A DNA stretch of 64,000 nucleotides, taken from the IMG/VR virus record IMGVR_UViG_3300032295_004069. One strand, given 5' to 3'. A program made the position numbers and the translations under genes. The notes beneath the pieces were generated by a model. The model had not been told where the DNA came from, did no database searches, and saw nothing but the letters and a program-made list of their open reading frames with translations. Shown one piece after another: positions 14,675 to 43,211 of the stretch (positions within the stretch are counted from its first letter, which is position 1; each line of letters begins with the position of its first letter). The stretch comes from a virus (taxonomy: Duplodnaviria > Heunggongvirae > Uroviricota > Caudoviricetes).

Positions 14675-14683
14675 TCAACTATT

Positions 14684-15025: not shown

Positions 15026-15412
15026 ATGAGATACATTATCACGCAATCACAACTTCATACACTCGTTTATTCATATTTGGATGAAATGTTTTCTAATGAA
15101 GACTTTGAGAGAAAAATCAACGAATATGATAAGAGTGGAAATACTTGGAGAATTCATATGAATGATGATAGCGGTAATGAAAAGATTGTCTATTTTTGGT
15201 TCGGACCTGGTGAAGATGATGATGGTAATCCACATAATGGTACAGGTAGTTTACATGTTCACCCCGATGTTGCCGACTTTATAAGAAATACATTCTCGAT
15301 TAGACAAGGAAAAGCTCTCGACATCATCGGTGATTGGGTAAGCGAAAAGTTTGATGTGGATATTGATGAGGTTGATATCTATCCTACCAGAAAAAGTCCC
15401 CCTAATTATTAA
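15026..15412 (+). CDS. hypothetical protein (MRYIITQSQLHTLVYSYLD)
   Basis: ATG at 15026 after CTATTTATATTAC; ITES-type N-terminus. Confidence 0.5.
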   Translation: MRYIITQSQLHTLVYSYLDEMFSNEDFERKINEYDKSGNTWRIHMNDDSGNEKIVYFWFGPGEDDDGNPHNGTGSLHVHPDVADFIRNTFSIRQGKALDIIGDWVSEKFDVDIDEVDIYPTRKSPPNY

Positions 15413-20123: not shown

Positions 20124-20396
20124 ATGGATAAGAATGTAAAATTGCTCGAAAAGTTCATGGAGAACTTTGATATGGACGGTATATGTGGATTTTGGATTGA
20201 TGAAGAAGTGGATGTACACGACAAATATTGGGTCTATATAATTATAGACTTGGACTTAATTGAGGGAACTAAGCCAGGTTTCGTTGCTCAGAGACTAAGA
20301 AATCACTTGAAATCTGAGATTAAAAAATTCACAAACATTGATGTCGAGATAGGTACTACCTCGAGAAGATGCTCCGAACTTACACAAACACATTAG
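20124..20396 (+). CDS. hypothetical small acidic protein ([11 protein letters not shown]...)
   Basis: ATG at 20124 after GGTATTTATTGAT; the track's 5' extension is unlikely. Confidence 0.4.
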
Positions 20397-21585
20397 GAAT
20401 CTCATCCCATGATGTCGTAAACTTCTGAGACATAAATTCTTGTCTCATCTCCCAATCTTTTGTTTTGTTAACAGGTGCCTGAACTAACTGAATTGAATTA
20501 GAAAACAACGTAGGTTGTTCAATATTTTCAGGCATAAGTTCATTGAATATAATCCCACATTTTTTGTAGTTTTTCCTTGAGTTATACATTTGTCTCAGGT
20601 GTGGGTATACCTGTGACCAAATTTGGTCTATATCACGTGTTTGTGACTCAAATTTAATCTGTTTTGAACTGTAATGTTTCTCACCCTTGTGGATGTTTCC
20701 ACTAAGAAATATGGTTGCTCTGTTGGGAGATATCTCGTTATCTATTAGTTTCTTTACACCGTTTTTAATATAGGTATACATCGCTTCGGCCAATTGGTCA
20801 AAGTCATTCACATCTTTTCCAAACGAACGAGTGGATGCAATGTTTTTCTTTAACTTTGGAATTGGTTTAACAGCATGGCAATACATTCCAAGTAATTCAC
20901 ACTTGGTTCTAAGACCATTAACGTTCATTAACTTTCTGACGATTGAATCAGACATCATAACAAACTGTCCAATACTTTCAACACCAAGTGTTTTAAGTTT
21001 CTTTGTCCACTTTCTTCCAATACCCCAAACCTCATCAACTGAAATTGTGTAAAGCGAATCTCTAAAATTTTGTAAACTCCAATAGGAACAAACACCATCA
21101 TAAGATGGTTGTTGTTTTGCCATATATGATGTAAGTTTGGCCAAGGTCTTGTTTGGACCAACACCAATTGAAACAGGAACACCTGTTAATCTCTTAACTT
21201 CGTTTCTAATTAAATGTAATCTGTCGAGGAGTTCTTCATCAGGTATATTTGAAAAATCCACAAAGCACTCATCTATTGAATATACCTCCACTTCGTTGGC
21301 GTACTTTTTAATTGTGGTCATAACTCTATCAGACATATCACCATAGAGATTATAATTGGAAGAGTAGACACAAAACCTATGTTCGTCCATATAGTCTTTT
21401 TTCATAAAGAAAGGTTCACCCATCTTTATTCCCAAGGCTTTGGCTTCTTGTGAACGAGCAATAACACATCCATCGTTGTTAGATAATACAACGGTTGGTC
21501 TTCCGATAGATATCGGATTAAATACTCTCTCACAACTAACATAAAAGTTGTTACAGTCTACAATACCAATTTTTTTATTTACCAT
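20380..21585 (-). CDS. umuC: Y-family translesion DNA polymerase, UmuC-like
   Basis: [60 protein letters not shown] align almost residue-for-residue with E. coli UmuC. Confidence 0.9.
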
Positions 21586-24347: not shown

Positions 24348-25454
24348 TCAGTCAAGTTGCTTAACTAAGTTAAGTGCTTGAGCAATGATTTGGTGCATAT
24401 CATAATAAACATATGTTGCCAATCTTCCACCAAAATAATAGTTTGGTAAGCTTTGGGTTAGACCTTTGTATTTCTCGTAAATTTCCGTGTTTTTGTCGTC
24501 TCTGATTGGATAATATGGTTCGTTATGACCATTGTAGTCAACGGGATATTCATAACTTACAACAGTTCCTTTTTGACCTTGAGGGTCAAACCACTTGTGT
24601 TCGAGAACTCTTGTGAATTTGGTATCGGAATCGGTATAGTTAACAACAGGTACTCCTTGGAAATTATCAACATTTAGAACCTGTGTTTCCCAATCCAAAC
24701 TTCTATATTCAAGTTTACCAAACCTATAGTCAAAGAACCTGTCTATTGGTCCTGTGTATATAACTTTATCCGCTAAAGAGTCGTAGTAATCTTTATCTTC
24801 AAAGTAGTCGGCATTTAACATTATGTTAGTATCCTCCAACATCTTTTCAAATATCTGAGTATATCCACCGACAGGCATACCCGTGAACTTATCGTTGAAG
24901 TAATTACTATCCCAAGTAAACCTAACGGGTAATCTTTTGATAATTGATGGAGGTAGGTCCTTACAACTTCTGTTCCACTGTTTTTCAGTATATCCCTTGA
25001 TGAGTTTCTCATAAATCTCTTCCCCAACCATGGACATTGCTTGTTCCTCTAAGTTAGTTATCTTCCCTTTGTATTTGGTCCTCTCAAGTTCTTCTCGTGC
25101 TTTTTCAGGGTCATTTACATCCCACAATTGGTTGAATGTCCACATGTTGAACGGTAAGGTGTACATATCACCTTTGTAGTTCGCAATTACATTGTGTGTG
25201 TATTGTCTGAACTCACAAAACTGATTCACATAATCCCAAATGAACTTGTCGTTTGTGTGAAATATGTGAGCACCATATCTATGAACATGAATTCCATTAA
25301 CATTTTCAGTATAACAGTTACCACCAATAACTTTTCTTTTGTCTATTATAAGACACTTTTTACCTTTCTTAGAAAGTTCATATGCACAAACTGACCCGAA
25401 TGGGCCAGCTCCTACTATGAGATAATCGTATTTTGTTTTATTTAATAGAATCAT
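24348..25454 (-). CDS. glf: UDP-galactopyranose mutase
   Basis: YDYLIVGAGPFGSVCAYEL...IDKRKVIGGNCYTE...HRYGAHIFHTNDKFIWDYVNQF matches the Glf N-terminal FAD-binding region closely. Confidence 0.85.
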   Translation of the reverse strand: MILLNKTKYDYLIVGAGPFGSVCAYELSKKGKKCLIIDKRKVIGGNCYTENVNGIHVHRYGAHIFHTNDKFIWDYVNQFCEFRQYTHNVIANYKGDMYTLPFNMWTFNQLWDVNDPEKAREELERTKYKGKITNLEEQAMSMVGEEIYEKLIKGYTEKQWNRSCKDLPPSIIKRLPVRFTWDSNYFNDKFTGMPVGGYTQIFEKMLEDTNIMLNADYFEDKDYYDSLADKVIYTGPIDRFFDYRFGKLEYRSLDWETQVLNVDNFQGVPVVNYTDSDTKFTRVLEHKWFDPQGQKGTVVSYEYPVDYNGHNEPYYPIRDDKNTEIYEKYKGLTQSLPNYYFGGRLATYVYYDMHQIIAQALNLVKQLD

Positions 25455-26605
25455 TTAAAATCAAATGTAAAACTTTCACTATCAATTGTATGTTCACTCA
25501 TTTTTTTTGTGATTCTTTCACGATATTCATTAAGAAAATTACTTGTGTTAAGGTAACATCTATCTTCAATCAAGAAAGCCAAACTTGGGAATGGATTAGG
25601 TTTATTACCATTAATCATCAAATCAATTGTTTCCAAAACCTTTTCATTATTTCCTAACTTATCGTAGTGAAACGCAAGGTAAATTAAATGCTCATTTCTT
25701 CTTGGTGAAAAAGGTTCCGCCAATTTGAAGTGTTCCTCAGCCTTTTGTGAATCACCAATGAAGTCATATGCCCAACCCATGACTATGAGTCCGAAATATG
25801 CCATCTCGTCTTCGTATTTTGGGGTCTTTGATTCGTTCCACTTGTGAGTCAATTCTAAAAATCTTTCATAATACCAAATTGACCTTCTAGCATATTCGTC
25901 TGAGTGTTTTTTTCCAAAGGGTAATTCACTTGATTTACCATAGCAGTCAGCATAACTCTTAGCGATGTACCATAAATGATAATAATCCTCATTAACTTTA
26001 TCACCAACCACCTTATCAATTTCGAGTTCCAAAGCGTCTCTAAGGAACTTTCTCGGCGCTAACCAAGTGTTACCATCTTGAGATACCAAATGTCTAAATC
26101 CATACGGCATGGTTAATCTTTGGAATCCTTCATCAACATCAGGAAGGTGTATTGTCTCGTGTCTCTTATCATGAGCAAAATACCAAGGGAATTTAGCATT
26201 CCAAAACCAGCATCTAAAATATCTCATACCACCTGTTTCAGCGGTGATATTGTAACTTTGAACCGTCGTATCATTGAGTATTGACCAATCGAAGTCTTCG
26301 TCAACTTTGAGTCTTTCGTCGGCATCCATTCTCAGAATCCAATCACACCCATGGTCTGTCTTTAAACATTCTTGAAGAGTGTGGTCACGATTCCAACCTG
26401 GGAAGTTCCATTCAATCTGATAAGTAAATCCAGGTATGTTCTTTTCTTGGAAATAGTTATCTATAATTTTTTGAGTATCATCTTTTCCGTTACATTGAAC
26501 CACATAATAGTCAACGTAAGGTGCAACAGAATCTAACATTCTTACAATGGTCGCGGCTTCATTACCCACCATTGAATTCAGACAAATTTTTGTAGTTTTA
26601 TTCAT
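25451..26605 (-). CDS. glycosyltransferase-like protein
   Basis: ICLNSMVGNEAATIVRMLDSV...DAD pattern of a GT-A fold; long C-terminal extension. Confidence 0.5.
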   Translation of the reverse strand: MNKTTKICLNSMVGNEAATIVRMLDSVAPYVDYYVVQCNGKDDTQKIIDNYFQEKNIPGFTYQIEWNFPGWNRDHTLQECLKTDHGCDWILRMDADERLKVDEDFDWSILNDTTVQSYNITAETGGMRYFRCWFWNAKFPWYFAHDKRHETIHLPDVDEGFQRLTMPYGFRHLVSQDGNTWLAPRKFLRDALELEIDKVVGDKVNEDYYHLWYIAKSYADCYGKSSELPFGKKHSDEYARRSIWYYERFLELTHKWNESKTPKYEDEMAYFGLIVMGWAYDFIGDSQKAEEHFKLAEPFSPRRNEHLIYLAFHYDKLGNNEKVLETIDLMINGNKPNPFPSLAFLIEDRCYLNTSNFLNEYRERITKKMSEHTIDSESFTFDFK

Positions 26606-27845
26606 AAATGTAGTTCATTACTCCCTCTTCATTAAAGAATTTTTTGACGGGAGTGTATTTTTGAAATTTATGGGAATGTCCCAATTCTTCGTCCCAATAC
26701 CAATCTTCAAGTCCAAATTCTTGTATTCTTTTATGAATTCTTTCATCATAATGGTCTCTGATTAATCTTGCTCTACGGTTGATATCAACAGAATTGTTAT
26801 CAACAGTACTATTTCGATTGTTGTATTGTAAGTATAACATTTTTTTCACATGAATAAATCTTGTGTGTAAAAAACTCCTAACAATAATTTCGAAGTCATC
26901 AGCAACAGGAGTTAACTTGTTATGTCCCCCAATTTTATAATAAAGACTTCTCTCCCACATTCTAATGTGGTTAGGCATTGAGATATTAAATCTAATTGTT
27001 AGTGGATTGATATCAGGGTACCAATGAGCCAAATATTTTTTACCGTCAGCCTCAACCCAACTGTGTCCTGCATATCCAAAGTCGAAGTAGTTATCGGGTC
27101 GTGCATACCAATTACCTGACCAATCGTGGTCATAGGACTTCATTTCACCGTCTTCATAAACCTCACAACTATCAGTGTATAGGAATCCTGCGTCAGGATA
27201 TTTTTTGATGGCATCATAACAGGTTTCCAAGCAATCCGAAACGAGGGCATCATCATGGTCTAACTCACAAACCCACTCTCCATCACATAACATAGCCGCT
27301 CTGTGTTTTGATAATCCAACGTTTCCACCAGTAAGTGGAAATATCTTGTGTATCTTTACTCGAAAGTCTTGATTAGATATTTTTTGAAGTTTCGTCCAAG
27401 TTTCATCATCAGGAGAATCATCAACAACAACCCATTCCCAATTTCTAAAAGTTTGTTTTTTCAAACTTTCATAGGTTCTGAAAATCCTATCACCCGTTTT
27501 GTAAGTGGGTGTGAATATTGAAAACTTTGGTCTGAAATACTTACAATTCCTAAAAACTGTTTGGCAAACGATTATGTTTGCAAGTACGTTATCAGGATAA
27601 ATTTCGTCCACGTGAACGTGAATTGAATGTAGTTTCGAGTCATTGATTTTTATAGGGTCAACTAACGAAACAATAAGGTCCGGTTCATACTTTGAATAAT
27701 CAGAGAAAACATCATCAGTGTAAGGTAAAGAAATTACTTGTACTTCGTCCTCCAATTCTTCTTCAAAGTAAACATCTGAATATAAAATATGGTCACCTTT
27801 GAAGTTCCAACCATAAACAATCGCACTAGGTTTTTTTGTTTTCAT
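26598..27845 (-). CDS. family-2 glycosyltransferase with N-terminal extension
   Basis: FSIFTPTYKTGDRIFRTYESLKKQTFRNWEWVVVDDSPDD...ELDHDD. Confidence 0.65.
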   Translation of the reverse strand: MKTKKPSAIVYGWNFKGDHILYSDVYFEEELEDEVQVISLPYTDDVFSDYSKYEPDLIVSLVDPIKINDSKLHSIHVHVDEIYPDNVLANIIVCQTVFRNCKYFRPKFSIFTPTYKTGDRIFRTYESLKKQTFRNWEWVVVDDSPDDETWTKLQKISNQDFRVKIHKIFPLTGGNVGLSKHRAAMLCDGEWVCELDHDDALVSDCLETCYDAIKKYPDAGFLYTDSCEVYEDGEMKSYDHDWSGNWYARPDNYFDFGYAGHSWVEADGKKYLAHWYPDINPLTIRFNISMPNHIRMWERSLYYKIGGHNKLTPVADDFEIIVRSFLHTRFIHVKKMLYLQYNNRNSTVDNNSVDINRRARLIRDHYDERIHKRIQEFGLEDWYWDEELGHSHKFQKYTPVKKFFNEEGVMNYIYE

Positions 27846-31977: not shown

Positions 31978-32427
31978 CTATAAATGATAGTTTAGACCCA
32001 AACCTACAAGGTTAGAATGCTTACCATCTTTTACAGTTCTTAGAATTGATTGTTCTAAGCACCACTTCTTGTTTATCTTATATCCAATGGTAGGTACATA
32101 AGTAAATTGACCTTTTTGACCATTGAAAAAAGTAACACCTCCGTCAAGTCCTACGTATAGGTTCTTCAGGTGCTTACGGTATCCAACAAGTGCTGGCATT
32201 CTTACGAAGCCTGCCTTATCTTGCATGAATTGGAAAGACACGTTCATGTTCTTTTTATGAAAGTTTACTTTCTGACCCCATGCTTTGGAATCCCAACCAA
32301 CATTTTTTGCAAACGGAGCGTTTACAGTTGCACCCACTGAGATGTCCCATCCCTTTTTATCGTGTTTCTGTGCAAATGTTACTAGCGAACATACGAGAGC
32401 AAAAAATAACAAAAATTGTTTCTTCAT
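31978..32427 (-). CDS. small outer-membrane beta-barrel protein
   Basis: Signal peptide MKKQFLLFFALVCSLVTFAQ; alternating hydrophobic beta-strand pattern; aromatic C-terminus. Confidence 0.5.
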   Translation of the reverse strand: MKKQFLLFFALVCSLVTFAQKHDKKGWDISVGATVNAPFAKNVGWDSKAWGQKVNFHKKNMNVSFQFMQDKAGFVRMPALVGYRKHLKNLYVGLDGGVTFFNGQKGQFTYVPTIGYKINKKWCLEQSILRTVKDGKHSNLVGLGLNYHL

Positions 32428-32541: not shown

Positions 32542-32823
32542 TTAAACGAACCTTTTGATTTTATAACCCTTTGACTGCATGTAGTCCTTGAATAGCTTTT
32601 TTGTGGATGTATTACTCATAGAGAACATATTTTTTACAAGGTCATTTAATGAATCTCTAACAAATAAAATCATATCACCTTTATCATAAGCAATCTGATT
32701 TTTGTCTCCTTTACCGAAGACAACCAAGGAACCATTGTCCTCAACACTATAGTCTTTTAGGTAGGAATCCAAAAATCTAAAGATTACTGATTCAAGTCTT
32801 GATTCTGTTATAATGTATTTCAT
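32542..32823 (-). CDS. small protein MKYIITESRLESVIFRFLD (tandem paralog a)
   Basis: ITES N-terminal family. Confidence 0.55.
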   Translation of the reverse strand: MKYIITESRLESVIFRFLDSYLKDYSVEDNGSLVVFGKGDKNQIAYDKGDMILFVRDSLNDLVKNMFSMSNTSTKKLFKDYMQSKGYKIKRFV

Positions 32824-32826
32824 GGC

Positions 32827-33180
32827 TTAATTATCGTCGTCATCATAGTCAGTATCCATCCACTCGAAGTTATCAATAGAAAGGTTTTTTTGGTATCTTT
32901 TATTGAACCATTGAATGATTGTTTTTATTGATATCAAGTCAGGTATTGAAAATAATTTAGAGAGTTTGGTAATCAATCCCTCATTGATGTATATAACATC
33001 GAAACTGTGGTCAGGAACTGTATGTGAATACTGAATTCTAAATCTAATAAGGTCTCTACCATATTCACCTTCAGCCATATTGAATTCACTATCACCAATA
33101 TCCCAATCATACCAATCTTGGTTGTCTAGGTAGTTGAATATCAACTGAGCTAATCTATTTTCTGTTATGATGTATTTCAT
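32827..33180 (-). CDS. small protein MKYIITENRLAQLIFNYLD (tandem paralog b)
   Basis: ITES N-terminal family. Confidence 0.55.
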   Translation of the reverse strand: MKYIITENRLAQLIFNYLDNQDWYDWDIGDSEFNMAEGEYGRDLIRFRIQYSHTVPDHSFDVIYINEGLITKLSKLFSIPDLISIKTIIQWFNKRYQKNLSIDNFEWMDTDYDDDDN

Positions 33181-33486
33181 TTATTCAGTATATTCTACTT
33201 TCACATTGAATTTATTTTCAAACCATTCAGTAACAAATGGAATTATATCAAGGACGCTTTTTGCAAACAAATCAGACAAAAACCTTTTGAAATCATTATT
33301 AATCCATAATCTACCGTCAGTAAAGTCATATTCCATCCAATCTCTCCATTCATCCTCATCAAAACCAGCTTTTTCTTGAATTAAGATGAAATCCCTGTAA
33401 TTTAATATGTTTTTACTCTCAACCCAACTATTCAAATAGTCGGTCATCAACATCTCTATTTTACTCTCTCTGATTATGATTTTCAT
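33181..33486 (-). CDS. small protein MKIIIRESKIEMLMTDYLN (tandem paralog c)
   Basis: ITES N-terminal family. Confidence 0.55.
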   Translation of the reverse strand: MKIIIRESKIEMLMTDYLNSWVESKNILNYRDFILIQEKAGFDEDEWRDWMEYDFTDGRLWINNDFKRFLSDLFAKSVLDIIPFVTEWFENKFNVKVEYTE

Positions 33487-33544: not shown

Positions 33545-34288
33545 TTAGATTGTTTCTACAATCGAAGAGGTTACGCCATCCCACTTCTTGATTTGAGTCT
33601 TGGGAACCCAAAACTCCATTTCACCAATCTCCTCCACACGCTTCAGGTATTCCTCACGGAAACGCTGAGTCTGTGATTTGTCGGTGATGTACTCAACACC
33701 CACATGTTTAGCACAAATCTTACCAAACCCAGTCAACATAGAGAACTCATCAGTTAGAGTCTTCATGCAACAAGTACAAACATCACCACGTTTGATAGTC
33801 AACTTACCACTGAAAAGAACTGCCTTTGGAGACACAGCCTTAAGGGTTGTGATGTCGATAAGGATGGGGTTGAACTTGAGACCATACTTCTCTTTAAGTT
33901 CCATTCCTATCTTACGACCAAGTTTGATGGTCTCTCCGATTGTCGGCCAGTTCATTCGAACTGTCTTCTCTTTGTCCTCCTCCTTTTGAATCTGAGCCAC
34001 AGCGGCTGAGATTTGCTTTGAGGTAAGTGTACCCCACTTTTCGAATTTGGAAGCGATGTCCTTAACGAATGGGTTCTCACCCTTGTACTCGACGATACGC
34101 TTCACGTCCTCAGGTAACTCCTCCCTGTTGATGGTCTTAACTTCGGAGTTAAGAGCCTTATCAGAGGCTTCGAGTTGCTTTGGGGTCAATTGTCCCCACT
34201 TCTTGAGGGCGTCTTTCATGTTGAGGATGAAACGGTTTTGACCTTGGTAGTTACGAACTTTGTCTTGAGTAGAGATTTGAGTAGTCAT
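33545..34288 (-). CDS. GC-rich gene, candidate abundant (virion?) protein with internal KKWGxLTxKQ repeats
   Basis: Track start at 34312 is TTG; ATG at 34288. Markedly higher GC than neighbours. Shares the upstream motif TTGTATTCACAAAACACA with 40848..41312. Confidence 0.45.
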   Translation of the reverse strand: MTTQISTQDKVRNYQGQNRFILNMKDALKKWGQLTPKQLEASDKALNSEVKTINREELPEDVKRIVEYKGENPFVKDIASKFEKWGTLTSKQISAAVAQIQKEEDKEKTVRMNWPTIGETIKLGRKIGMELKEKYGLKFNPILIDITTLKAVSPKAVLFSGKLTIKRGDVCTCCMKTLTDEFSMLTGFGKICAKHVGVEYITDKSQTQRFREEYLKRVEEIGEMEFWVPKTQIKKWDGVTSSIVETI

Positions 34289-34381
34289 GGTGGATGTGTT
34301 TTGTGAATACAAAGATAGTGATTTATTTCAAATCGAAAAACTTTTTTTTAAAAACCCGACTTTTTTTAGTTATAAAATTAC

Positions 34382-34810
34382 TTATTTTCCCCCAAATTTA
34401 TAATCGTAGGTTAAAGCGTTGTGATTTACAATATTTTTGTTAAGAATTTGGAGTATCTCATCCGTTGGATTAGGCCCTGCTAATCTTTTTCTACACTCAA
34501 TTACATTATCTTCCATAAGTTCAACACCATAAGTTGTAGACAATGCTTTTACAAGAGAACACCCACTTCTTTCCATTTTCCTGATAACTATTTCAGATAA
34601 AAATTGACCATCTCCGCATGAGTTGTCTAAAAAAGTTTTTTCTGGATTTGAAAATAATTCGGGATTCGATTTTTCTAAATCATCAATCATTATTAAAACA
34701 AGTTCGGTTGGAGTGAAAACTTCTGCAGTTTGTTTAATCCTTAACTTATCTCTGTCCACACCAGACATATATTTTCTATTTCTTGAAAATTCCTTATACT
34801 CGTTTAACAT
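34382..34810 (-). CDS. truncated gamma-class N6-adenine MTase N-terminal fragment (motif X FTPTELV and motif I DNSCGDGQFL present, NPPY absent); possible pseudogene or partial duplicate
   Basis: ATG at 34810 after the TTTATAAAT motif. Architecture parallels the first ~110 aa of the intact MTase at 35884..37134. Confidence 0.45.
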   Translation of the reverse strand: MLNEYKEFSRNRKYMSGVDRDKLRIKQTAEVFTPTELVLIMIDDLEKSNPELFSNPEKTFLDNSCGDGQFLSEIVIRKMERSGCSLVKALSTTYGVELMEDNVIECRKRLAGPNPTDEILQILNKNIVNHNALTYDYKFGGK

Positions 34811-34846
34811 ATTTATAAATGTAATAAAAAAATAATTATTTCCAAA

Positions 34847-35908
34847 TTGGTAATTTATTTCATCAAAAATAAAATAAACGGTAAAGGTTATGTTGGTCAA
34901 CATTGTGGACAATCTGATGCTAGATGGCGACAACATTTACGTGAGGCATTACAAGTTGAAAATCCTAAACCTCTTTACGCGGCAATTCGAAAATACGGTA
35001 AGGAAAATTTTTCTTATGAAGTTTTAGAAGAAATACCAATTGAGTTGGGTCAGAGAGAATTAGATACTCGAGAAATTTTTTGGATACACAACAAAAATAC
35101 CTTTATAAAGAATGGGAAGGGATATAATCTCACTTTAGGTGGTGGAGGTGGTGTAAGACAATTTTGTTCGGTTAAAGGTGAAGGTCAAGCTCGTCATAAA
35201 TGGGGCCAATACGACCTCAATGGTAATTTTATTGATTCATGGAACAGCCCCACTCAAGCGGCAAGAATTTTAGGATGTAATAATTACAGACATTTATATC
35301 ATGCCGCAAATTGGCATGAAAATAAGGGTAAATATGGAAAAACGTTTTGTGGTTTTATGTGGAAAAAAGTACCACTTTCAGAAAATTTACCAACTAAAAT
35401 TACCCCTTTAAGCGAATTGACCAAAATTGACCTTCCGAAACTTAGAAAGATAAAAATCCCAAAAAGTTCTACAAGTGAGGAATTCGAAATAGGTCAGTAC
35501 AATTTCTTGGGTGAATTGGTGAACGTATGGCCGAATAATGGTGAAATAATCGGAAGGACTTTAAAAATGGAGGGGGACTCAATAAGAAGAAATCTTAGGG
35601 GTGAATCAGTTCTTACCTACGGATTCATGTGGAGAAGATTCAGAAGAGGGGAATCCCCAAAAAAGATTCCAGCACCCCAAGAAATCACTCAGGGGTTATC
35701 CTTGGATGAAAATTTATTTTATGATGAACCAATTCTAAAGATAAATTTGTTAGATAAGGATATTATGAACAAATATACATCAATTTCGGAAATACCTGTC
35801 GCATTTCTAACACAATTAGAAATATATGATGAAGCAGTGAATATGAATAATGTAGATAACACCCTTTGGATTTTTGAAAAGGATTACGAAGAAATAAATA
35901 ACTCGTAA
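34847..35908 (+). CDS. GIY-YIG homing endonuclease (TTG start)
   Basis: VIYFIKNKINGKGYVGQ...R..H...E...N core followed by a DNA-binding tail. Both ends overlap the flanking MTase-type ORFs on the opposite strand. Confidence 0.8.
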   Translation: MVIYFIKNKINGKGYVGQHCGQSDARWRQHLREALQVENPKPLYAAIRKYGKENFSYEVLEEIPIELGQRELDTREIFWIHNKNTFIKNGKGYNLTLGGGGGVRQFCSVKGEGQARHKWGQYDLNGNFIDSWNSPTQAARILGCNNYRHLYHAANWHENKGKYGKTFCGFMWKKVPLSENLPTKITPLSELTKIDLPKLRKIKIPKSSTSEEFEIGQYNFLGELVNVWPNNGEIIGRTLKMEGDSIRRNLRGESVLTYGFMWRRFRRGESPKKIPAPQEITQGLSLDENLFYDEPILKINLLDKDIMNKYTSISEIPVAFLTQLEIYDEAVNMNNVDNTLWIFEKDYEEINNS

Positions 35909-37134
35909 ATTTCTTCTTCAGAAATAGGATGACTTGGTAAATTTATTTTTTTTAATTTTGTATATGTCTTATGACCATCTCTGGCATTTGTTGAGTAAAA
36001 AGAAATTACTTTGGACACAATTTCTGAGTTAAGAATTTTAACTAAATTTTCACCCTGAATTTCATTATCAACAACTACATAAAGTAGGTTATCTGATAAA
36101 TTAGTTGGTTCTGAAAAAAGTGTTGCACATGGGTAACCACTTTTAGAAATTCCAACTTTTATTTTTTCATAATCAACTAAAGCTTCTTTATAGAAATACT
36201 TTATCACCCCTTTAGTCTTAGTCATTTTATCTACTATAGGAAAAACATTAGTTTCAGTCTGCTCAAGGGTAACAACATCATCTTTTATTTGTTTTTTTCT
36301 TATTCTTCTTGCAACACCTTTTAAATTGACCATAATCTTAAAGTCAAAGTTATTTTCCTCGCTTAGAAAATGTTCGGAAAGGTTTTCGCATTCATCTAAG
36401 TGTCTTTTAGGGACAATTTTACCTTTTTCATAAACCCTTAATTTAGTTACAATTTCATTTTTAGAATTTACATAGGTGGTTAAAATTTGTTGGGTTTTTT
36501 CTTGGATTAACTTATTAGTCAAGTTGAATACGAACGCTGTTGTTCCGACACCTTGTTTTTTGAAAATTCTTTCAGGTACATCGAAAATAAAAGAATTTAT
36601 CTTATAAAACCCTTCAACAAAACTTCTGTTTTTATCGCAATTCATTAGATAGTCTGCCATAGTGGTAGGTACTACAAATGAAAAAATTGCATTTGGTTTG
36701 AGTAATGATGAAAGAATTTTTTTTGTGAAATGCTGATAAAGTGCATTATCTCCAGGTTTGTCTTGGTCTTGGTACGGTGGATTACCTATTACTACATCAA
36801 ATTTCATATCAGTTTCTGTTTTGAAAAAATCACAATGTTTTACATTCAAAAATCCTCTTCTTGTTAGGTGATTAATATATTTTACCCTTATATCATATCC
36901 ATAAACACGGGACTTAGAATCATTCTCAGTGTATCCATAAATATTAATCAATCTATTAACAATCTCAATAAGAAATGTACCCTTACCCATGCAAGGGTCC
37001 AAAAATTTGGAATTGGGGTTTTTCCAAATTTCGGTAGGGATTCTGTCTAACATTAAGTTTACAAGTTCAGTAGGCGTAAAAATTTCCCCTAAAGAGGGAT
37101 TTGCTTTCCATTTCTTAAATTGAGTAAGTTTCAT
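35884..37134 (-). CDS. gamma-class N6-adenine DNA methyltransferase (TaqI/Eco57I-like)
   Basis: GEIFTPTELV (motif X), FLDPCMGKGTFL (motif I), VIGNPPYQD (motif IV). Confidence 0.8.
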   Translation of the reverse strand: MKLTQFKKWKANPSLGEIFTPTELVNLMLDRIPTEIWKNPNSKFLDPCMGKGTFLIEIVNRLINIYGYTENDSKSRVYGYDIRVKYINHLTRRGFLNVKHCDFFKTETDMKFDVVIGNPPYQDQDKPGDNALYQHFTKKILSSLLKPNAIFSFVVPTTMADYLMNCDKNRSFVEGFYKINSFIFDVPERIFKKQGVGTTAFVFNLTNKLIQEKTQQILTTYVNSKNEIVTKLRVYEKGKIVPKRHLDECENLSEHFLSEENNFDFKIMVNLKGVARRIRKKQIKDDVVTLEQTETNVFPIVDKMTKTKGVIKYFYKEALVDYEKIKVGISKSGYPCATLFSEPTNLSDNLLYVVVDNEIQGENLVKILNSEIVSKVISFYSTNARDGHKTYTKLKKINLPSHPISEEEIYELFISS

Positions 37135-37135
37135 G

Positions 37136-39340
37136 TTACAAAGATATAGAATTTTCTTCTTGATTGTATGAAGTAATGATTGTGTTTAACAATTTTTCAG
37201 ATAAAGCACCTGAAATTATAATTTTTTTTAATGTATCACAATCAATCCCGACTTCAAAAAAAACCTCTTGATTGTATCCTTTATTCTGAATCATGTCCAG
37301 GGTTGTGAGAATATTATCAGATTCACAATTGTTTATTTCAGAAATTTCAACAATATTCTCTACAATATTTGATAAAACTTGTTTTAGTTTTTGACGTAGA
37401 TTTTCAATTACTTTGAGTTTCTTTTTATTTTCCTCAATTTTTTCTGAATCAGTTCTGATAACTTTAGTTGAATCTATTCCGTCAACTTTTTCTTCAATTT
37501 GAGAAGTAACCTGAACACCTGTTAATGAATTAACCAATTCGGAATCATTTATTATTGAATCAACTTTTACGGTTTCCGCACCAACACGAATTAATGTACT
37601 AGAACTAATTAACTTTTCTGCATATTCATCAGATATGATTGGTTCCATCATACCATCATCGTTAGTAAAAATATTAACAGAACGGAGAACTCTTTTGATA
37701 CCGTCACTTAACTCATTAACCTGAACTTTCTCTCCTTCGTAAACCAAATATTCATCAATAGGGTTAACTTGTTCACGATTAGGGTCTAAGGATAATGAAA
37801 TAACATTACCGAAAACTTTTTTGTCCCCCCAATAAGTTTTACCTGGTGTTAACACTCGAGAAACTTTTTGACTAATTGTTGCATATGAACCACGGTCGAA
37901 CATCAAAAACACAGTATCAATCTCAGATACAGAAAAACTACGTGAACCCATATCTTTACTTATGAATACCACTTTTTTTCCCTCCCTTTGAGCTCGGGCA
38001 ACAACACCCTTAGCTTTCTCTTCCGCTTCTCTATTTGATGTCTCATCTCCATTAATCAACTCAACGATGTATTGAGGTCCCAAATTATTTTGAACCAACT
38101 TGTGAAATTTATTTTGTTCTTTCTTGTTTGGAGTATTAGCAAAAATCATTGAAACTTGTTTGGGACAAATTTCACTTGTGTTCAAATCAACTAAGTAAGT
38201 TAATTTACCGTTGTATTCACCATATAAAGATTTAACCAAGTTAGAAAGAATTGGTGTTGCTTTATCAACGTCTGCAAACAATTTGTTCCAATCTGTCTTA
38301 TATTGGTCAGGCACTTGATTGAAGTTATCAATGATTCCACCTAAAGCTAATCTCATAAATTGAGGAATAATAATGTCTTTAACAGAATTCTTACTCTCAT
38401 TCAGGTCATTTAGTCCAACTTGAATTGGATGTTCTCCTTTCTTAACCATCAACATATCAGTGTAGGACCATCTAATAAGATTGTCTCTGAGATTTGATAG
38501 TGGTGAAGCAACACGTTCGATTGCAGTACCAGTCATGTAGATATTCAACCCACAATTCAAATAGTCAATTTTTCCTTGACTGTTCATTCTATGAGCACCA
38601 AAGTCAGCTTCATCAATAATCGAAACCTTTTCTTTACTTGGAATTGCTTTGATATAATCCAATTTTGATTCATGTTCTCTCATATGAAGAGACATTGCAA
38701 CAACAATTAATTTATCACCATAATTTTCATTAATAACTTCTTGTAAGTTATCATCAGAGGTAACAAATACCATATTTGAAGAATACCCTTTGAAAATATA
38801 AAATTCTTTTTTAAATGATGTAATAGCAGTCAGTACGTAGGTTGGTATTATACAAATTTTTATATTATGCTCTGAAAATAATGTGCTCAATAAGTCAATC
38901 GCCCAAATTGTTTTACCAAATCTTGGAGCCAACTCTAATGCAAAATCAATTTGGTTGTATCCAAGTCGTAATTCTTCTTGATATTTTGATAAGAATTGGT
39001 TTTTGATTAGTGATTGAAAATATCGGGGATTGTACTCAACTCGAGTATCTTGTGATGATTCCGCAATAATTTGGTTCATGACCGCTATAACTTCGTCATC
39101 AGAGGTAAATCCACCATACCACTCTCTGATAATGTGAGAATACCCCATATTAGTTAATTTCTTGTGGATTTCGTAGTCAGTTAGAACGGAAACACCATCC
39201 CAAACTTTTTCAGGATTTTCAGACATCGCAGTACGAGCCTGTTCTTTAATTCTAACATCTGCAGTCCTACTGGTCTGACCAAACTTATAATTACCCTTTT
39301 GTCTATCGGTTGGAGTAGTATGTACGTATAGTGTATTCAT
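37136..39340 (-). CDS. T5orf172/GIY-YIG-like N-terminal domain fused to SF2 (DEAD-type, Res-like) helicase
   Basis: LYVHT...GNYKFGQTSR.ADVRIKE; Walker A APRFGKT; motif II IIDEADFG. Lies immediately 5' of the MTase in the same operon. Confidence 0.6.
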   Translation of the reverse strand: MNTLYVHTTPTDRQKGNYKFGQTSRTADVRIKEQARTAMSENPEKVWDGVSVLTDYEIHKKLTNMGYSHIIREWYGGFTSDDEVIAVMNQIIAESSQDTRVEYNPRYFQSLIKNQFLSKYQEELRLGYNQIDFALELAPRFGKTIWAIDLLSTLFSEHNIKICIIPTYVLTAITSFKKEFYIFKGYSSNMVFVTSDDNLQEVINENYGDKLIVVAMSLHMREHESKLDYIKAIPSKEKVSIIDEADFGAHRMNSQGKIDYLNCGLNIYMTGTAIERVASPLSNLRDNLIRWSYTDMLMVKKGEHPIQVGLNDLNESKNSVKDIIIPQFMRLALGGIIDNFNQVPDQYKTDWNKLFADVDKATPILSNLVKSLYGEYNGKLTYLVDLNTSEICPKQVSMIFANTPNKKEQNKFHKLVQNNLGPQYIVELINGDETSNREAEEKAKGVVARAQREGKKVVFISKDMGSRSFSVSEIDTVFLMFDRGSYATISQKVSRVLTPGKTYWGDKKVFGNVISLSLDPNREQVNPIDEYLVYEGEKVQVNELSDGIKRVLRSVNIFTNDDGMMEPIISDEYAEKLISSSTLIRVGAETVKVDSIINDSELVNSLTGVQVTSQIEEKVDGIDSTKVIRTDSEKIEENKKKLKVIENLRQKLKQVLSNIVENIVEISEINNCESDNILTTLDMIQNKGYNQEVFFEVGIDCDTLKKIIISGALSEKLLNTIITSYNQEENSISL

Positions 39341-39377
39341 ACCACAAAGATACTCATTAGCACGGAACCAACAAAAA

Positions 39378-40643
39378 CTATTTCAAAAGTTTTTTTCCTT
39401 CACGTTCTCTATGGAACTTGATGGCGAATCTGTGGATTTCTTCCTGTATAACTCCAAGCGTAGTCCAAGACATTGGTACCTCTATACCATCAGTCAAATG
39501 GATTGTTTGGGACCTGTGGTTTTGGTCTTTGGATATTGAAATAAGGTCCACTTTATCAAGGAGGTTAAGTGATTCTAAAATCCCCTTGGCTGAGTTTAAT
39601 TGTCCCTTCCCACCGTCGATAAGAACAAGGTGAGGTAGTTGACCCTTTTCATCCAAAAGTCTCTTAAAACGTCTATAAATCACTTCTTGGAAAGACGCGC
39701 AGTCATTACCTTTGTTACCCTCTTCACGGATGATATACTTTCTGTATTCAGACTTCTGAGGTCTGTCGTTCACATATCTAACAGACGCAGCAACATTAGA
39801 GTCACCCTGATTGTGAGAGTTATCAAACGCTTCGATGATTAGTGGAAGGTTCTTGAGACCAAGAGCTTTCTTGAATTCCATAGCCTTCTTGTTGTACATT
39901 CTAACTCGAACAGGTTCAAGTTTCTGTTCAAGGATATCTACATTCTTTAGTCTGTGAAGATAGTCGTGAGCCTTCTCGAACTTTAGGTCATCAGCAAATC
40001 TTTTCATCTCAGAAGAGATATGTTTTCTGAGTTCTTTGAATTGGAGTGAGAATACTTTTTTTGCAATGAAAGAGACTTTCATGTACTCAAGGCTGGACTG
40101 AAGTCCCAAGCAAGGTGCTTCACATCTACCCAAATGATATTCAAGACAAGGTTTGAATTTACCCGCCTGAATATTTTCACTCAAGAGATTGTAAGAACAA
40201 GACCTGAGAGGTAAAAGGTCGTGAATCAAAGTATATACCTCTTGAGCAAGTTGACCTGAGGTAAAACTGATACCATCAGTGTCTTCAACCACACCGTGAG
40301 TTACTTGAAGTTTTGGAAATGGTTCTTTGGTGAGAGATAGAAACCAAGTTCTTGATTTATCATCTTTACCTTTGATGTTGAACTTTGGTTGGTAGAGTTT
40401 GATTAACTCTTCCTCCATCAATAAGGCTTCCGCTTCAGATGAAGCGATTTGATATTCAACGTCTTTGATTTGTTCAACAAGAGTTCTTGTCTTCTTGTCG
40501 TCGTGTTTTTTTGAGAAATAAGAAGCAACACGCTTTGGTAGAAACTTGGACATCCCTACATAGATAACCTGCTCCTTATCATCTTTGTAGATGTAACAGC
40601 CAGGGTACTGAGGAGCAGATTTTATTTTTTGTTTGAGGTCCAT
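39378..40643 (-). CDS. UvrC-like dual-nuclease (GIY-YIG + Cys cluster + RNase H-like DxSH), lacks the C-terminal HhH region
   Basis: GCYIYKDDKEQVIYVGMSKFLPKRVASYF; CSYNL...CLEYHLGRCEAPC; IEAFDNSHNQG. Confidence 0.7.
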   Translation of the reverse strand: MDLKQKIKSAPQYPGCYIYKDDKEQVIYVGMSKFLPKRVASYFSKKHDDKKTRTLVEQIKDVEYQIASSEAEALLMEEELIKLYQPKFNIKGKDDKSRTWFLSLTKEPFPKLQVTHGVVEDTDGISFTSGQLAQEVYTLIHDLLPLRSCSYNLLSENIQAGKFKPCLEYHLGRCEAPCLGLQSSLEYMKVSFIAKKVFSLQFKELRKHISSEMKRFADDLKFEKAHDYLHRLKNVDILEQKLEPVRVRMYNKKAMEFKKALGLKNLPLIIEAFDNSHNQGDSNVAASVRYVNDRPQKSEYRKYIIREEGNKGNDCASFQEVIYRRFKRLLDEKGQLPHLVLIDGGKGQLNSAKGILESLNLLDKVDLISISKDQNHRSQTIHLTDGIEVPMSWTTLGVIQEEIHRFAIKFHREREGKKLLK

Positions 40644-40894
40644 TTATTTCTGTGTCTATAAAACCAAATGAGGTGAATAACAATAACGCACGAATTTACA
40701 ACAATTGTTGGACCTGCAGAAATTCCAAGTCCATAAATTATCCAAAAGACGGCACCTACCGTATTAACCAATCTGAGTTTGAAGATATCTTCAATCAGAA
40801 AGGACGTTAGGATAAGTGCCGTCCCGATATATCCAAAAATTTCCCAATTAATCATTTTGTGAGAAGGCTTTATCTGCCCAAGTTTTAGCTCCAA
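40622..40894 (-). CDS. small membrane protein (2-3 TM helices)
   Basis: Hydrophobic segments FGYIGTALILTSFLI and GAVFWIIYGLGISAG. Confidence 0.4.
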   Translation of the reverse strand: MELKLGQIKPSHKMINWEIFGYIGTALILTSFLIEDIFKLRLVNTVGAVFWIIYGLGISAGPTIVVNSCVIVIHLIWFYRHRNKWTSNKK

Positions 40895-41312
40895 CGAAAG
40901 ACCACAAGTTCATATCACACATATCAGGGAAAGAAGTTCTCATGTCCCCAACAGTAAGTACTTTTAAGAAACCAAGGTCGATGGAGTACCATTTACCACC
41001 TTTTGTTGTATACACATTGAACCAATGTCCTGATTCACTTTTCACCTGAATATTCACCAGTGAGTTCTTGCTGTATCCTGCGATTACGCTGTGAGGAGTA
41101 CCTTTGCTGTCGTGGATATTAATGAAACCCGCTTGGCATTTACCAGCAACACGGAATTCATATTCTTTATCAGTGTCTTTGAGGAAATTAGAGACGCTCA
41201 CTGAGGTTCTTTTACCTTTAACTACGGTGTCGAAAGAACCATAGAATACGTCAGAGGTTAAAACAGAGTCGGTGTTTACTTTAACAACGGGAAGGGTGGT
41301 GGTTGGAGTCAT
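40848..41312 (-). CDS. GC-richer beta-rich hypothetical protein (MTPTTTLPVVKV...), candidate structural protein
   Basis: Track start at 41336 is TTG; ATG at 41312; shares the 19-nt upstream motif with 33545..34288. Confidence 0.45.
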   Translation of the reverse strand: MTPTTTLPVVKVNTDSVLTSDVFYGSFDTVVKGKRTSVSVSNFLKDTDKEYEFRVAGKCQAGFINIHDSKGTPHSVIAGYSKNSLVNIQVKSESGHWFNVYTTKGGKWYSIDLGFLKVLTVGDMRTSFPDMCDMNLWSFVGAKTWADKAFSQND

Positions 41313-41932: not shown

Positions 41933-42349
41933 ATGGCAAAAAAAATGACCGATTCGGAAAGAGATAGAATGGTTGAAGTTCTCAGTGAAAAATACAAATT
42001 TTTACTGACGAATGATTTAATGAAAACCTATGACGTTCAAAGTGTTTTAATTGATGAAATCATTCTAAATGATGACGGTTCAATTGAAGAAATTAATATG
42101 GAGATTGTATTAGATTACTTAGCGAGTTGTGATGGTGATTCATATTCAATCGGACATATGTTAAGAAGAATCTCCGAAGACGTTTCAGACGTATTATACA
42201 AATACGTAATAGATAATAAAACTTTCAAATTCACAAGGGATGAATCATTTCCTGTTCAAGTAAGTGAACCTTTCTTTTTGACTTTTGATTATAAAGCAGA
42301 TGAAACCCATCTAGCCAGACTTTGGGTAAAATATGAATATGGTCTCTAA
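41933..42349 (+). CDS. hypothetical protein (MAKKMTDSERDRMVEVL...)
   Basis: ATG at 41933 after CTATTTATGTAAT. Confidence 0.45.
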   Translation: MAKKMTDSERDRMVEVLSEKYKFLLTNDLMKTYDVQSVLIDEIILNDDGSIEEINMEIVLDYLASCDGDSYSIGHMLRRISEDVSDVLYKYVIDNKTFKFTRDESFPVQVSEPFFLTFDYKADETHLARLWVKYEYGL

Positions 42350-43211
42350 CGAAAAAATATATAAGATAGCCAAGGGTTTATATGAATACATGGACATAAA
42401 AGGTTTGGATTCCCCAACCTCAGTTGTTTCACTTTTCAAAAATAACAAATCACAATACACCGAATATCTAAAAAATTTCCCACCAGAAACTGTTTTGAAA
42501 GTAATGATTGCATTTTGGGGTATTTCAAGGGGAATGACCTTATCTGAGATTGAATTTATGTACGAAGACCTATTCTTTGCAACAGTTTTCTACACTCAAG
42601 GTTATTACCATGAAGAACAATGTGAACAATGTGATGGTAGTGGAAATGAAGAGTGTGATTACTGTGACGGTAGAGGTGAATCATCTTGTGATGATTGCGA
42701 TGGTGATGGTAATATAACTTGTGATGCTTGTGATGGAGAAGGACAAGTTGAAGATGGGTCAGGGGACATGGTACCTTGTACTAAATGTGATGGTGAAGGT
42801 ACTGAAACTTGTGATAGTTGCGACGGTGAAGGGAATAAAAGATGTGATTATTGTTATGGAAACGGGTCTGAAGATTGTTCTAATTGTGAGGGAAGTGGTA
42901 CATTGGAATCAGATTACAATAAAGACTATTCTGTAGATTTTATTGCCTGTTGGAGAAGGTCATTCAAAGATAAATGTGAATTAGAACAAGGAACTACTAA
43001 CCCTGTTGCAACTTTAGATAAGTTTCAAAGAAGTAATCAAATTATGATTTTAGCCTCTGAAGAATCGGACGCAGAGCTTGAGGAAGAAGTTTCCGATAAC
43101 AAAGTATACTGTTTAGAATATTTGGGTGATTCTGCTGAACTCATGTTAAACACTCTGAATAATCTAACTTTCAGAATGGTCGGTTACGATGATAGCCACT
43201 TATTATTATGA
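42333..43211 (+). CDS. acidic protein with eight tandem DnaJ-type CxxCxGxG zinc-finger repeats
   Basis: CEQCDGSG, CDYCDGRG, CDDCDGDG, CDACDGEG, CTKCDGEG, CDSCDGEG, CDYCYGNG, CSNCEGSG. Confidence 0.6.
   Translation: MNMVSNEKIYKIAKGLYEYMDIKGLDSPTSVVSLFKNNKSQYTEYLKNFPPETVLKVMIAFWGISRGMTLSEIEFMYEDLFFATVFYTQGYYHEEQCEQCDGSGNEECDYCDGRGESSCDDCDGDGNITCDACDGEGQVEDGSGDMVPCTKCDGEGTETCDSCDGEGNKRCDYCYGNGSEDCSNCEGSGTLESDYNKDYSVDFIACWRRSFKDKCELEQGTTNPVATLDKFQRSNQIMILASEESDAELEEEVSDNKVYCLEYLGDSAELMLNTLNNLTFRMVGYDDSHLLL

Follow-up and report, generated by a model that had tools for sequence, protein, structure and literature searches.

In Type III restriction-modification (R-M) systems such as EcoP15I Res/Mod, Res carries its nuclease as a PD-(D/E)xK domain at the C-terminus, and Mod belongs to the β class of methyltransferases (MTases). 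Type ISP enzymes cleave DNA upon collision after translocation and hemimethylate an asymmetric site. These Type ISP enzymes (LlaGI, LlaBIII) place a nuclease, a helicase, an MTase and a recognition domain in this order on one polypeptide (PMC3553950), and their nuclease domain belongs to the Mrr family of PD-(D/E)xK folds (PMC2790908). The dnmA-yeeB-yeeC clusters encode an MmeI-like MTase, an SF2 helicase and a T5orf172/GIY-YIG protein; the B. subtilis cluster showed neither restriction nor antiphage activity, whereas in Vibrio crassostreae a homologue of it has an effect on phage sensitivity (PMC9973331).

Here we compare with these systems a phage locus at 34382–40643 of a 64,000-nucleotide stretch of viral DNA (the window). 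All five ORFs claimed for it by an earlier, sequence-only reading check out in coordinates and strands. Three of them, for a helicase-like 734-aa protein, an MTase and a small protein, make up a minus-strand phage operon that is conserved as a three-gene unit. This operon probably combines a helicase-nuclease-like protein, a γ-class MTase and a spare MTase lobe in an ATP-dependent R-M-like system, with a homing endonuclease gene (HEG) resident at the junction of the MTase and small genes.

The conserved three-gene operon

The operon runs from the helicase through a 1-nt gap to the MTase, and then to the small ORF, whose start codon overlaps the MTase stop. In the window, the joint between the 734-aa protein and the MTase reads TAA C ATG, so that the gap is 1 nt rather than the 2 nt claimed before. 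The trio keeps its order at loci L004–L011, L025, L022/23 and L026, where the flanks differ, and it occurs in a distant form in the cultured Synechococcus phage S-CAM7 0809CC03, with a helicase identity of 27%. All genes of the module are annotated as hypothetical in S-CAM7. Across relatives, dN/dS is 0.04–0.2 for all genes, pointing to more than chance.

The first two genes are even joined in some relatives. The helicase and an Eco57I MTase form one polypeptide of 1131–1142 aa in P0064–P0071, P0092 and P0093, and the helicase-MTase junction of L008 has no stop codon. Sequencing artefacts were ruled out as the source of the fusions, because at least 10 independent clusters of 1131–1142 aa come from different sources.

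Megablast and blastn searches with 34000–41000 found nothing similar among 50,697 phage records, and IMG/VR scans with the helicase and with the MTase found no relatives. A promoter and terminator scan was uninformative, as its counts equaled the shuffle expectation.

Helicase, MTase and a probable R-M-like logic

The 734-aa protein (37136..39340, minus strand) consists of an N-terminal T5orf172/MUG113-like domain of the GIY-YIG superfamily (about residues 1–100), an SF2 dsDNA-translocase-like ATPase (about residues 105–540; Walker A RFGKT, motif II DEAD) and a helical C-terminal region after the ATPase. T5orf172 (best E 4.4e-10) and MUG113 (best E 1.9e-5) were matched only in relatives, which are 58–77% identical; in the window's own protein T5orf172 was not found even at E 0.1, and the ResIII and Helicase_C matches are sub-threshold. 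Residues Y5, R30 and E73 are invariant over sequences of 43–91% identity, and the second tyrosine of the YIG motif varies in the family among Y, F and V. An hhalign comparison of the N-terminal domain with the GIY-YIG domain of the HEG, using a very shallow template alignment, gave no similarity. Because of the missing T5orf172 match in the window, the variable tyrosine and this lack of similarity to the HEG profile, the N-terminal domain may be a DNA-binding module and not a nuclease.

The motor fold appears nearest to the dsDNA motors of restriction enzymes (Type III, Type ISP) and of the Snf2 type and not specifically to DEAD-box RNA helicases, although motif II is DEAD. This corrects the former description as a GIY-YIG-like plus DEAD-box helicase protein. 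Searching PDB sequences with a profile of the helicase family yielded nothing beyond noise (E ≥ 0.29), and PHROGs, PADLOC and NCBIfam have no family for the 734-aa protein. A scan of GTDB genomes with the helicase alignment returned a single weak match, in an archaeal MAG, by which the family appears essentially viral.

The second gene (35884..37134, minus strand) encodes a γ-class N6-adenine DNA MTase of 416 aa, complete as had been proposed. Eco57I (46.1 bits) and N6_Mtase (41.2 bits) are both over cutoff, TaqI_C is sub-threshold, and the motifs follow the γ-class order of X, I, II, III and IV (VVIGNPPYQ) before a C-terminal target-recognition part. The N-lobe is intact in the window. The MTase also matches the PADLOC mad2 model at 1.7e-19. 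Its recognition part is hypervariable, being 17–48% identical between lineages whose helicases are 76–91% identical.

The fusions of helicase and MTase, the apparently restriction-like motor and the hypervariable recognition part together point to an ATP-dependent R-M-like logic, and they bear out the earlier view of the cassette as R-M-like. A methylase paired with a helicase-nuclease had seemed of unclear logic, but such a combination is standard for ATP-dependent R-M (Types I, III and ISP), and the two are fused in relatives. By analogy with Type ISP, Type III R-M and the DnmA-YeeB-YeeC clusters, the MTase and its recognition part would read a short asymmetric site and methylate phage DNA. 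At an unmethylated site they would instead recruit the translocase-nuclease, which would move along DNA with ATP and then cut; the DNA of the host or of competing phages would be the likely target.

The module is set apart from each of these systems. Unlike in Type ISP enzymes, its nuclease-like domain is of the T5orf172/GIY-YIG type, as detected in relatives, and searches with the 734-aa protein and its relatives turned up no Mrr or PD-(D/E)xK family. It is also divided between two polypeptides in the window, a single polypeptide being found only in the fused relatives listed above. Further, it is phage-encoded and comes with an extra stand-alone SAM lobe, and no similarity in sequence to any PDB chain was detected. 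From Type III it differs by an N-terminal nuclease-like domain of another fold and by the γ class of its MTase. With dnmA-yeeB-yeeC it shares, as a set of functions, a γ N6A-MTase (MmeI/Eco57I-like), an SF2 helicase and T5orf172/GIY-YIG in one operon. There, however, MTase, helicase and T5orf172 are three separate proteins with no small SAM lobe reported, whereas here a single protein, ahead of the MTase, joins T5orf172 to the helicase.

The same components could serve modification only. The translocase would then carry the MTase along DNA for fast processive methylation that protects against host restriction, and the T5orf172-like domain would be a non-cleaving module for DNA binding or recombination, as T5orf172 has been described (PMC9973331; PMC7824862). 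The unconserved second GIY-YIG tyrosine agrees with this, as does the B. subtilis cluster, which methylates but does not restrict, and hypervariable recognition parts could track diverse host R-M systems. On the other hand, Y5, R30 and E73 do not vary among those sequences of 43–91% identity, the best structural matches of the motor include restriction motors, the homologous V. crassostreae cluster affects phage sensitivity, and protective phage MTases normally do not need a motor. We regard modification alone as possible but rather doubtful.

A second SAM-binding lobe

The small gene (34382..34810, minus strand) encodes a 142-aa protein that we assign, by phrog_4376, homologues and motif alignment, as a stand-alone SAM-binding lobe of an N6A-MTase. 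The phrog_4376 match has an E of 1.2e-20 over positions 6–124 of 134. The protein was previously credited with motifs X and I only, but the alignment gives X (EVFTP), I (FLDNSCGDGQFL), II (YGVEL) and III (NIVNHNALTYDY), and its end is the exact point where motif IV would start. It thus has what marks a stand-alone lobe, that is, about 135 aa with motifs X to III, ending before motif IV. Its true start is the ATG at 34810, where all homologues begin. The family counts 1,762 representative clusters at E ≤ 1e-3, mostly of 110–250 aa, and 5,211 clusters at 90% identity.

In the predicted structure, three strands alternate with helices (core pLDDT 67–93), and disorder is predicted for the first 32 residues, which are conserved. 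The best Foldseek matches of the model were the MTase domains of CamA, MmeI and LlaGI/LlaBIII, the right kind of proteins, at weak E-values of about 0.1, none of them significant.

Alignments show homology of the small protein both to the lobe at the C-terminus of permuted MTases, with identity up to 55%, and to the second subunit of split MTases. P0130, P0201, P0252 and P0267 are fused permuted MTases that begin at motif IV and have the lobe at the end; residues 1–300 of the permuted form align with the cassette MTase from residue 108 to the end. The fused permuted form also occurs in Aeromonas phages phiAS5 and G2, the lobe family is also the C-terminal part of phrog_11371, and split forms are found in S-CAM7 and P-SSM2. 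In these β-class-like permuted or split enzymes, the counterpart of the small protein is the X-I-II-III lobe after the recognition domain, or a second subunit. In the window, by contrast, the lobe coexists with a complete γ MTase.

A true split, in which the catalytic partner has no SAM lobe of its own, is therefore not what the window shows, its MTase N-lobe being intact. Such partners do occur at L017–L021, at a second S-CAM7 locus and in P-SSM2. L017–L021 have no helicase, and motif X is gone from their MTase N-lobe; in L018 this lobe also has in-frame stops and FLDP changed to YLGP. A 306-aa catalytic half is nevertheless intact in seven clusters. Codon differences between L018 and L022 number 9 nonsynonymous and 1 synonymous in the N-lobe remnant, as against 5 nonsynonymous and 16 synonymous in the catalytic half (Fisher p = 0.0012). 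A decayed N-lobe next to a constrained catalytic half suggests that the small protein works in trans on the catalytic half. It would be a spare SAM-binding lobe able to dock onto that half, and such docking would explain why the half is kept under constraint where the helicase and the MTase N-lobe have been lost.

Duplication-truncation and fission-fusion models of MTase permutation were reportedly advanced by Jeltsch in 1999, by Bujnicki in 2002 and by Peisajovich et al. in 2006. The window would represent the partially duplicated intermediate that permutation models predict. We tentatively extend this to a bolder proposal, which we hold to be somewhat improbable as a whole, that one phage neighborhood retains all stages of MTase circular permutation, together with a parent module that is an undescribed phage-specific class of ATP-dependent R-M. 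First, a complete γ MTase would be accompanied by a spare X–III lobe, as in the window. Second, the cis N-lobe would decay or be deleted with the spare lobe serving in trans, as in L017–L021, S-CAM7 and P-SSM2. Third, fusion would yield the permuted enzyme of the P0130 type and of the Aeromonas phages. In the new class, a GIY-YIG-superfamily nuclease would replace PD-(D/E)xK, and the resident homing endonuclease would shuttle specificity alleles between phages.

Alternatively, the small protein could be a regulator and not a catalytic lobe, acting as a SAM sensor or sink, or as an inhibitor that competes with the MTase N-lobe, and so timing methylation against restriction. The second lobe does look redundant beside the complete N-lobe in the window and most relatives, the conserved N-terminal segment, with its predicted disorder, suggests partner binding, and in ACG-2014f the small protein stands alone with no adjoining catalytic half. 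We find regulation unlikely, however, as the lobe is the sole SAM-binding half in fused and split permuted MTases, and the catalytic half of L017–L021 is under selection with no lobe of its own.

Neighboring genes and the resident homing endonuclease

Upstream of the operon lies a UvrC homologue of 421 aa (39378..40643, minus strand) with GIY-YIG and UvrC RNase H domains, which scores 318.8 against the TIGR00194 cutoff of 285.45. No (HhH)2 or HhH family was found in it at E ≤ 0.01, and it ends 13 residues past the RNase H domain, in agreement with the proposed UvrC-like dual nuclease without HhH. It resembles UvrC/Cho excinucleases in its two domains but differs in its length, the lack of (HhH)2 and being phage-encoded. 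A Y-family polymerase gene is present elsewhere in the window.

The UvrC homologue adjoins the module only in the window and in L011 (80% identity); other lineages have a 792–801-aa protein or small ORFs upstream. Synteny thus rules it out as a module member, and it is a lineage-specific neighbor outside the conserved unit. A repair or recombination cassette would unite the helicase-nuclease with the UvrC homologue, perhaps with the polymerase too, and leave the MTase as an unrelated neighbor. We consider this very improbable, because apart from that adjacency in two loci there is no support for a joint repair module: the fusion partner of the helicase in relatives is the MTase and not UvrC, the trio is found again without UvrC in genomic surroundings that differ greatly, and the loci examined show no helicase-UvrC fusion or conserved adjacency.

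The remaining ORF (34847..35908, plus strand) is, as previously recognized, a free-standing GIY-YIG homing endonuclease with a TTG start; it has 353 aa and also carries NUMOD1. NUMOD1 scores 24.2 bits (cutoff 22.8), and GIY-YIG scores 21.5 bits, 1.1 below its cutoff of 22.6. Matches to PHROG homing-endonuclease families (E 4.6e-22) and TIGR01453 (E 6.4e-14) support the assignment, tblastn matches are annotated phage HEGs, and relatives have an ATG start where the window has the TTG in the alignment. The HEG is antisense to the operon. Of the overlaps formerly claimed at both of its ends, the one with the 3′ end of the MTase is real (25 nt, kept in relatives), but the small ORF, counted from its true start, is divergent from the HEG and separated from it by a 36-nt spacer.

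That the HEG was inserted between the two genes is confirmed by relatives. It is absent from at least seven related metagenomic lineages (L004/5, L006, L007, L008, L009/10, L011 and L025), in which the MTase stop overlaps the small-ORF start by 8–11 nt, and it is present at the same site and in the same orientation in L012, L013, L018–21, L022/23 and L026. Its dN/dS is 0.05–0.18. The HEG itself has an amino-acid identity of 68–86%, and it is always with one MTase allele: the C-terminal part of the window's MTase is 80% identical to that of HEG-containing L012 and 17–22% identical to those of HEG-less relatives, and the MTase is 57–59% identical to those of the other HEG-containing loci.

Centered on the HEG, a recombination tract of ~3.1 kb (34500..37650) departs from L011, the closest backbone relative, with boundaries that are approximate as they come from 100–150-nt sliding windows. 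Identity to L011 is 97–100% at 38500–37900 and 76–77% at 37600–37150; no alignment is possible between 36770 and 34783, and identity is 70–75% at 34800–34500 and 90–100% below 34500. The helicase is 91% identical to L011 versus 62% to L012, whereas the MTase C-terminal part is 17% versus 80%. The HEG thus shows presence/absence polymorphism at a fixed site together with flanking co-conversion. HEGs are known to mobilize flanking DNA and to sit at exchange boundaries (PMC2790892, PMC10448857). This one is probably functional and old, and it and one MTase allele would travel together between phage backbones by gene conversion of the flanking DNA. With T4-like free-standing GIY-YIG HEGs (Seg) and the mobE type it shares the N-terminal GIY-YIG and NUMOD modules, the intergenic position, the presence/absence polymorphism and the flanking mosaicism (PMC2790892, PMC2988022, PMC10448857), but it differs in being antisense and in its stable tie, kept through deep divergence, to a single MTase specificity allele.

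The small protein predates the HEG and is an old selected gene, not debris of the insertion. The gene is intact in every HEG-less relative, lying directly after the MTase in at least seven such lineages at 66–85% amino-acid identity. Synonymous sites are saturated across relatives, with dN/dS of 0.04–0.16 (about 0.1), so the gene is under purifying selection and a pseudogene is ruled out. Its family has thousands of members, among them cyanophage proteins with no HEG alongside. Both observations that the earlier reading had named as refuting it were made: the gene occurs in relatives that have no HEG, and it codes for a separate family of proteins kept under selection. An origin of the ORF as a truncated MTase 5′ end, copied as a partial target duplication at HEG insertion, can be practically dismissed in spite of its position adjoining the HEG and its 40% identity to the MTase N-terminus over 70 aa, since identity this low and the HEG-less relatives rule out a recent duplication, and the protein is closer to the C-terminal lobes of permuted MTases than to its neighbor.

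These results name a widespread, unannotated phage module and give it an architecture, and they correct the intuitive reading of a fragment next to an HEG as an insertion scar. They suggest that phages, and not hosts, use a relative of the Type ISP and Type III restriction enzymes in which the nuclease has been swapped. With partially duplicated, split and fused states among related loci, they also offer natural material on the origin of circularly permuted DNA MTases, in which, from the sequence evidence, a spare lobe may buffer the loss of the cis lobe. Finally, the hitch-hiking of an HEG with one MTase specificity allele is a plausible route by which methylation or restriction specificities may move between phages.

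Gene content and the small open reading frame

The five ORFs that the sequence-only reading had placed in this region are present there. What it observed is largely right, and its interpretation holds in part. The GIY-YIG homing endonuclease gene (HEG; 34847-35908, plus strand) encodes a protein with an N-terminal GIY-YIG domain plus NUMOD1, matches PHROG homing-endonuclease families (E 4.6e-22) and, by tblastn, annotated phage HEGs, and has its TTG start where the ATG of its relatives aligns (MIIYYIKNK...). The methyltransferase (MTase; 35884-37134, minus strand) is a complete gamma-class N6-adenine enzyme as described earlier, with Eco57I and N6_Mtase above cutoff and motif IV as VVIGNPPYQ. 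The gap between it and the 734-aa helicase gene (37136-39340, minus strand) measures 1 nt instead of 2 nt. The name T5orf172-SF2 helicase is borne out in part, as T5orf172 and MUG113 are found in close relatives, but the ResIII and Helicase_C matches of the window protein are both below threshold.

The small ORF (34382-34810, minus strand; 142 aa) had been read as an MTase fragment with motifs X and I only. It actually contains X, I, II and III, and ends precisely at the expected beginning of β-4/motif IV. As in all homologues, translation truly begins at an ATG, here at 34810, so that the small ORF does not overlap the HEG end as previously thought.

Related metagenomic contigs were reached through the helicase search. 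In loci L004/5, L006, L007, L009/10, L011 and L025, the helicase, MTase and small ORF occur in order without the HEG, and the MTase stop is overlapped by the small-ORF ATG (ATGATTGA in L011, for example), which upholds the view of the HEG as an insertion. The small proteins of these relatives are 66-85% identical to that of the window. The window protein also matches phrog_4376 almost end to end (E 1.2e-20), and stand-alone homologues of ~133 aa are found in T4-like cyanophages without a neighboring HEG. Among 1.84 billion representatives searched, its homologues (E<=1e-3, mostly 110-250 aa) form 1,762 clusters, or 5,211 at 90% clustering. The dN/dS of the small ORF is 0.04-0.16 with synonymous sites saturated, and the protein shares only 40% identity over 70 aa with the adjacent MTase N-terminus.

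Because the small ORF is kept in HEG-less relatives, belongs to a protein family of its own, shows purifying dN/dS and is only 40% identical to the MTase, a partial target duplication accompanying the insertion is no longer tenable; the first two of these findings are the ones that the sequence-only reading had itself named as refuting it. The ‘fragment’ is an old gene and no insertion scar.

Homing endonuclease and the mosaic tract

L012, L013, L018-21, L022/23 and L026 all have the HEG at this site and in this orientation, accompanied every time by a 415-418 aa MTase allele type or a truncated form thereof. The closest HEG-less allele of the HEG-linked recognition-domain family, in L025, is 45% identical. 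The HEG itself has a dN/dS of 0.05-0.18.

Gene trees of the helicase, the MTase C-terminal part and the small protein are in conflict. Between the window and L011, the respective identities are 91, 17 and 78%, whereas between the window and L012 they are 62, 80 and 84%. The DNA of the window and L011 is 97-100% identical in the mid-helicase gene, drops to ~76% at 37600, is unalignable from 36770 to 34783, and recovers to 70-75% down to ~34500 and then to 90-100%. The downstream ORF (33545-34312, minus strand; 255 aa, with a DUF6011-like C-terminus) encodes a protein 100% identical to its L011 counterpart, as opposed to 78% for the adjacent small ORF, which places a sharp recombination boundary near 34500.

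Free-standing HEGs co-convert flanking DNA (PMC2790892, PMC10448857), and the pattern seen here is what would be expected of a functional one. In this case the HEG takes a whole MTase specificity allele along.

Helicase-MTase unit and neighboring genes

The cassette had been called RM-like, which holds, with an unclear logic in pairing a methylase with a helicase-nuclease, which does not. In clusters P0064-P0071, P0092 and P0093 (1131-1142 aa), helicase and MTase form one polypeptide, and the helicase-MTase junction of L008 lacks a stop codon. The trio is found again amid unrelated flanks, as in L009/10, and at 27% helicase identity in S-CAM7 0809CC03, a cultured Synechococcus phage in which its genes are all annotated hypothetical. 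The helicase N-domain carries a T5orf172/MUG113 signature (...IYIYTT...YKIGET...R.KQQ...REWF) with invariant Y5, K19, G21, R30, E73 and W74. The C-terminal, recognition part of the MTase is 17-48% identical across lineages with helicases 76-91% identical. Taken together, the fusion, the recurrent trio, the N-domain and the variable recognition part argue that the unit follows the logic of ATP-dependent R-M enzymes. Almost no member of the helicase family turns up in 185,579 species-representative cellular genomes.

We infer that the unit would cleave DNA; alternatively, it may be a protective MTase that is helped by the motor and does not cleave. The fused relatives have the same domain order as Type ISP enzymes (PMC3553950), but the nuclease fold differs. 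Bacterial dnmA-yeeB-yeeC clusters have the same component set as the phage module (PMC9973331). The module is a variation on three kinds of system already known: ATP-dependent R-M-like enzymes, split or permuted MTases, and free-standing HEGs.

The helicase is called as two consecutive ORFs in L026 (2712-4979; 311+434 aa) and L024 (2342-4649; 319+448 aa), which may reflect either a natural split or a frameshift. Near the module, L006 (12957-13679), L017 (1008-1784) and L020 (830-1789) have another MTase of the N6_N4_Mtase family, unrelated to the first, so these phages have multiple MTases.

The UvrC homologue (39378-40643, minus strand) passes the TIGR00194 cutoff at merely 421 aa and lacks (HhH)2, in agreement with the earlier description, and is a genuine UvrC relative. 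Residues ~195-240 resemble by eye the UvrB-binding UVR motif. Only the window and L011 have it next to the trio, with other upstream genes elsewhere, and we treat it as a neighbor rather than a module member. The window also encodes a Y-family (DinB/UmuC-like) DNA polymerase with IMS, IMS_C and DUF4113 domains (20380-21585, minus strand), which, taken with the UvrC homologue, points to a repair repertoire unusual for a phage.

Elsewhere in the window, tandem small paralogues of 93, 117 and 101 aa (32542-33486, minus strand) all begin MKYIITE[SN]RL, with weaker copies at 9519-9815 (minus) and 15026-15349 (plus); these paralogues received no family assignment. At 24348-27845 (minus), two GT2 glycosyltransferase-like genes come after a UDP-galactopyranose mutase, and the three may form a cluster for glycan synthesis or DNA/protein glycosylation. 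A 292-aa ORF (42333-43211, plus) is full of CxxCxGxG-type, DnaJ zinc-finger-like repeats (CDGSGNEECDYCDGRGESSCDDCDGDGNITCDACDGEG...). A 149-aa ORF (31978-32427, minus) has an N-terminal signal-like sequence, MKKQFLLFFALVCSLVTFAQ, in a style typical of Bacteroidota secreted proteins, possibly hinting at the host.

Permuted, split and decayed MTase forms

Some members of the small-protein family are found fused, making up the last 130 aa of circularly permuted MTases that are 400-470 aa long and begin at motif IV (MLSFKCIAGNPPF..., MKFDIIPTNPPF...). The first ~300 residues of these proteins are collinear with the cassette MTases, from residue 108 of the latter through to their end. The same fused form occurs in T4-like Aeromonas phages. 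A split form is found in S-CAM7 and P-SSM2, where an upstream overlapping ORF begins at motif IV and is followed by the small gene. The S-CAM7 genome MT586120.1 contains two related loci, all annotated hypothetical: a distant helicase (two ORFs), gamma MTase and small lobe at 4320-8145, and a split permuted pair, with a catalytic half beginning MKFDVIIANFPF and a lobe, at 13970-15326.

L017-L021 have no helicase, and their MTase N-lobe is decayed with motif X lost; that of L018 has in-frame stops and FLDP changed to YLGP. A 306-aa catalytic-half ORF beginning MKFDVVIGNPPY is intact in seven clusters. Between L018 and the intact L022 allele, the codon differences in the catalytic half (98% aa identity) comprise 5 nonsynonymous and 16 synonymous ones, versus 9 and 1 in the N-lobe remnant (Fisher p=0.0012).

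The simplest reading is that the small protein would supply the SAM-binding lobe in trans. In the window, where the MTase retains an intact lobe of its own, the small protein may or may not have this role. With the HEG putting 1.07 kb between the small ORF and the MTase, HEG-containing loci also show the small protein acting as a separate polypeptide. Its structure model has three β-strands alternating with helices (core pLDDT 67-93), and the N-terminal 32 residues are strongly conserved yet modeled with low confidence. Fold matches go to proteins of the expected type (CamA, MmeI and LlaGI/LlaBIII MTase domains), although none is significant.

What is most interesting about the module is that the MTase permutation states appear to form a natural series, along with its nuclease-swapped, phage-specific Type ISP-like architecture.
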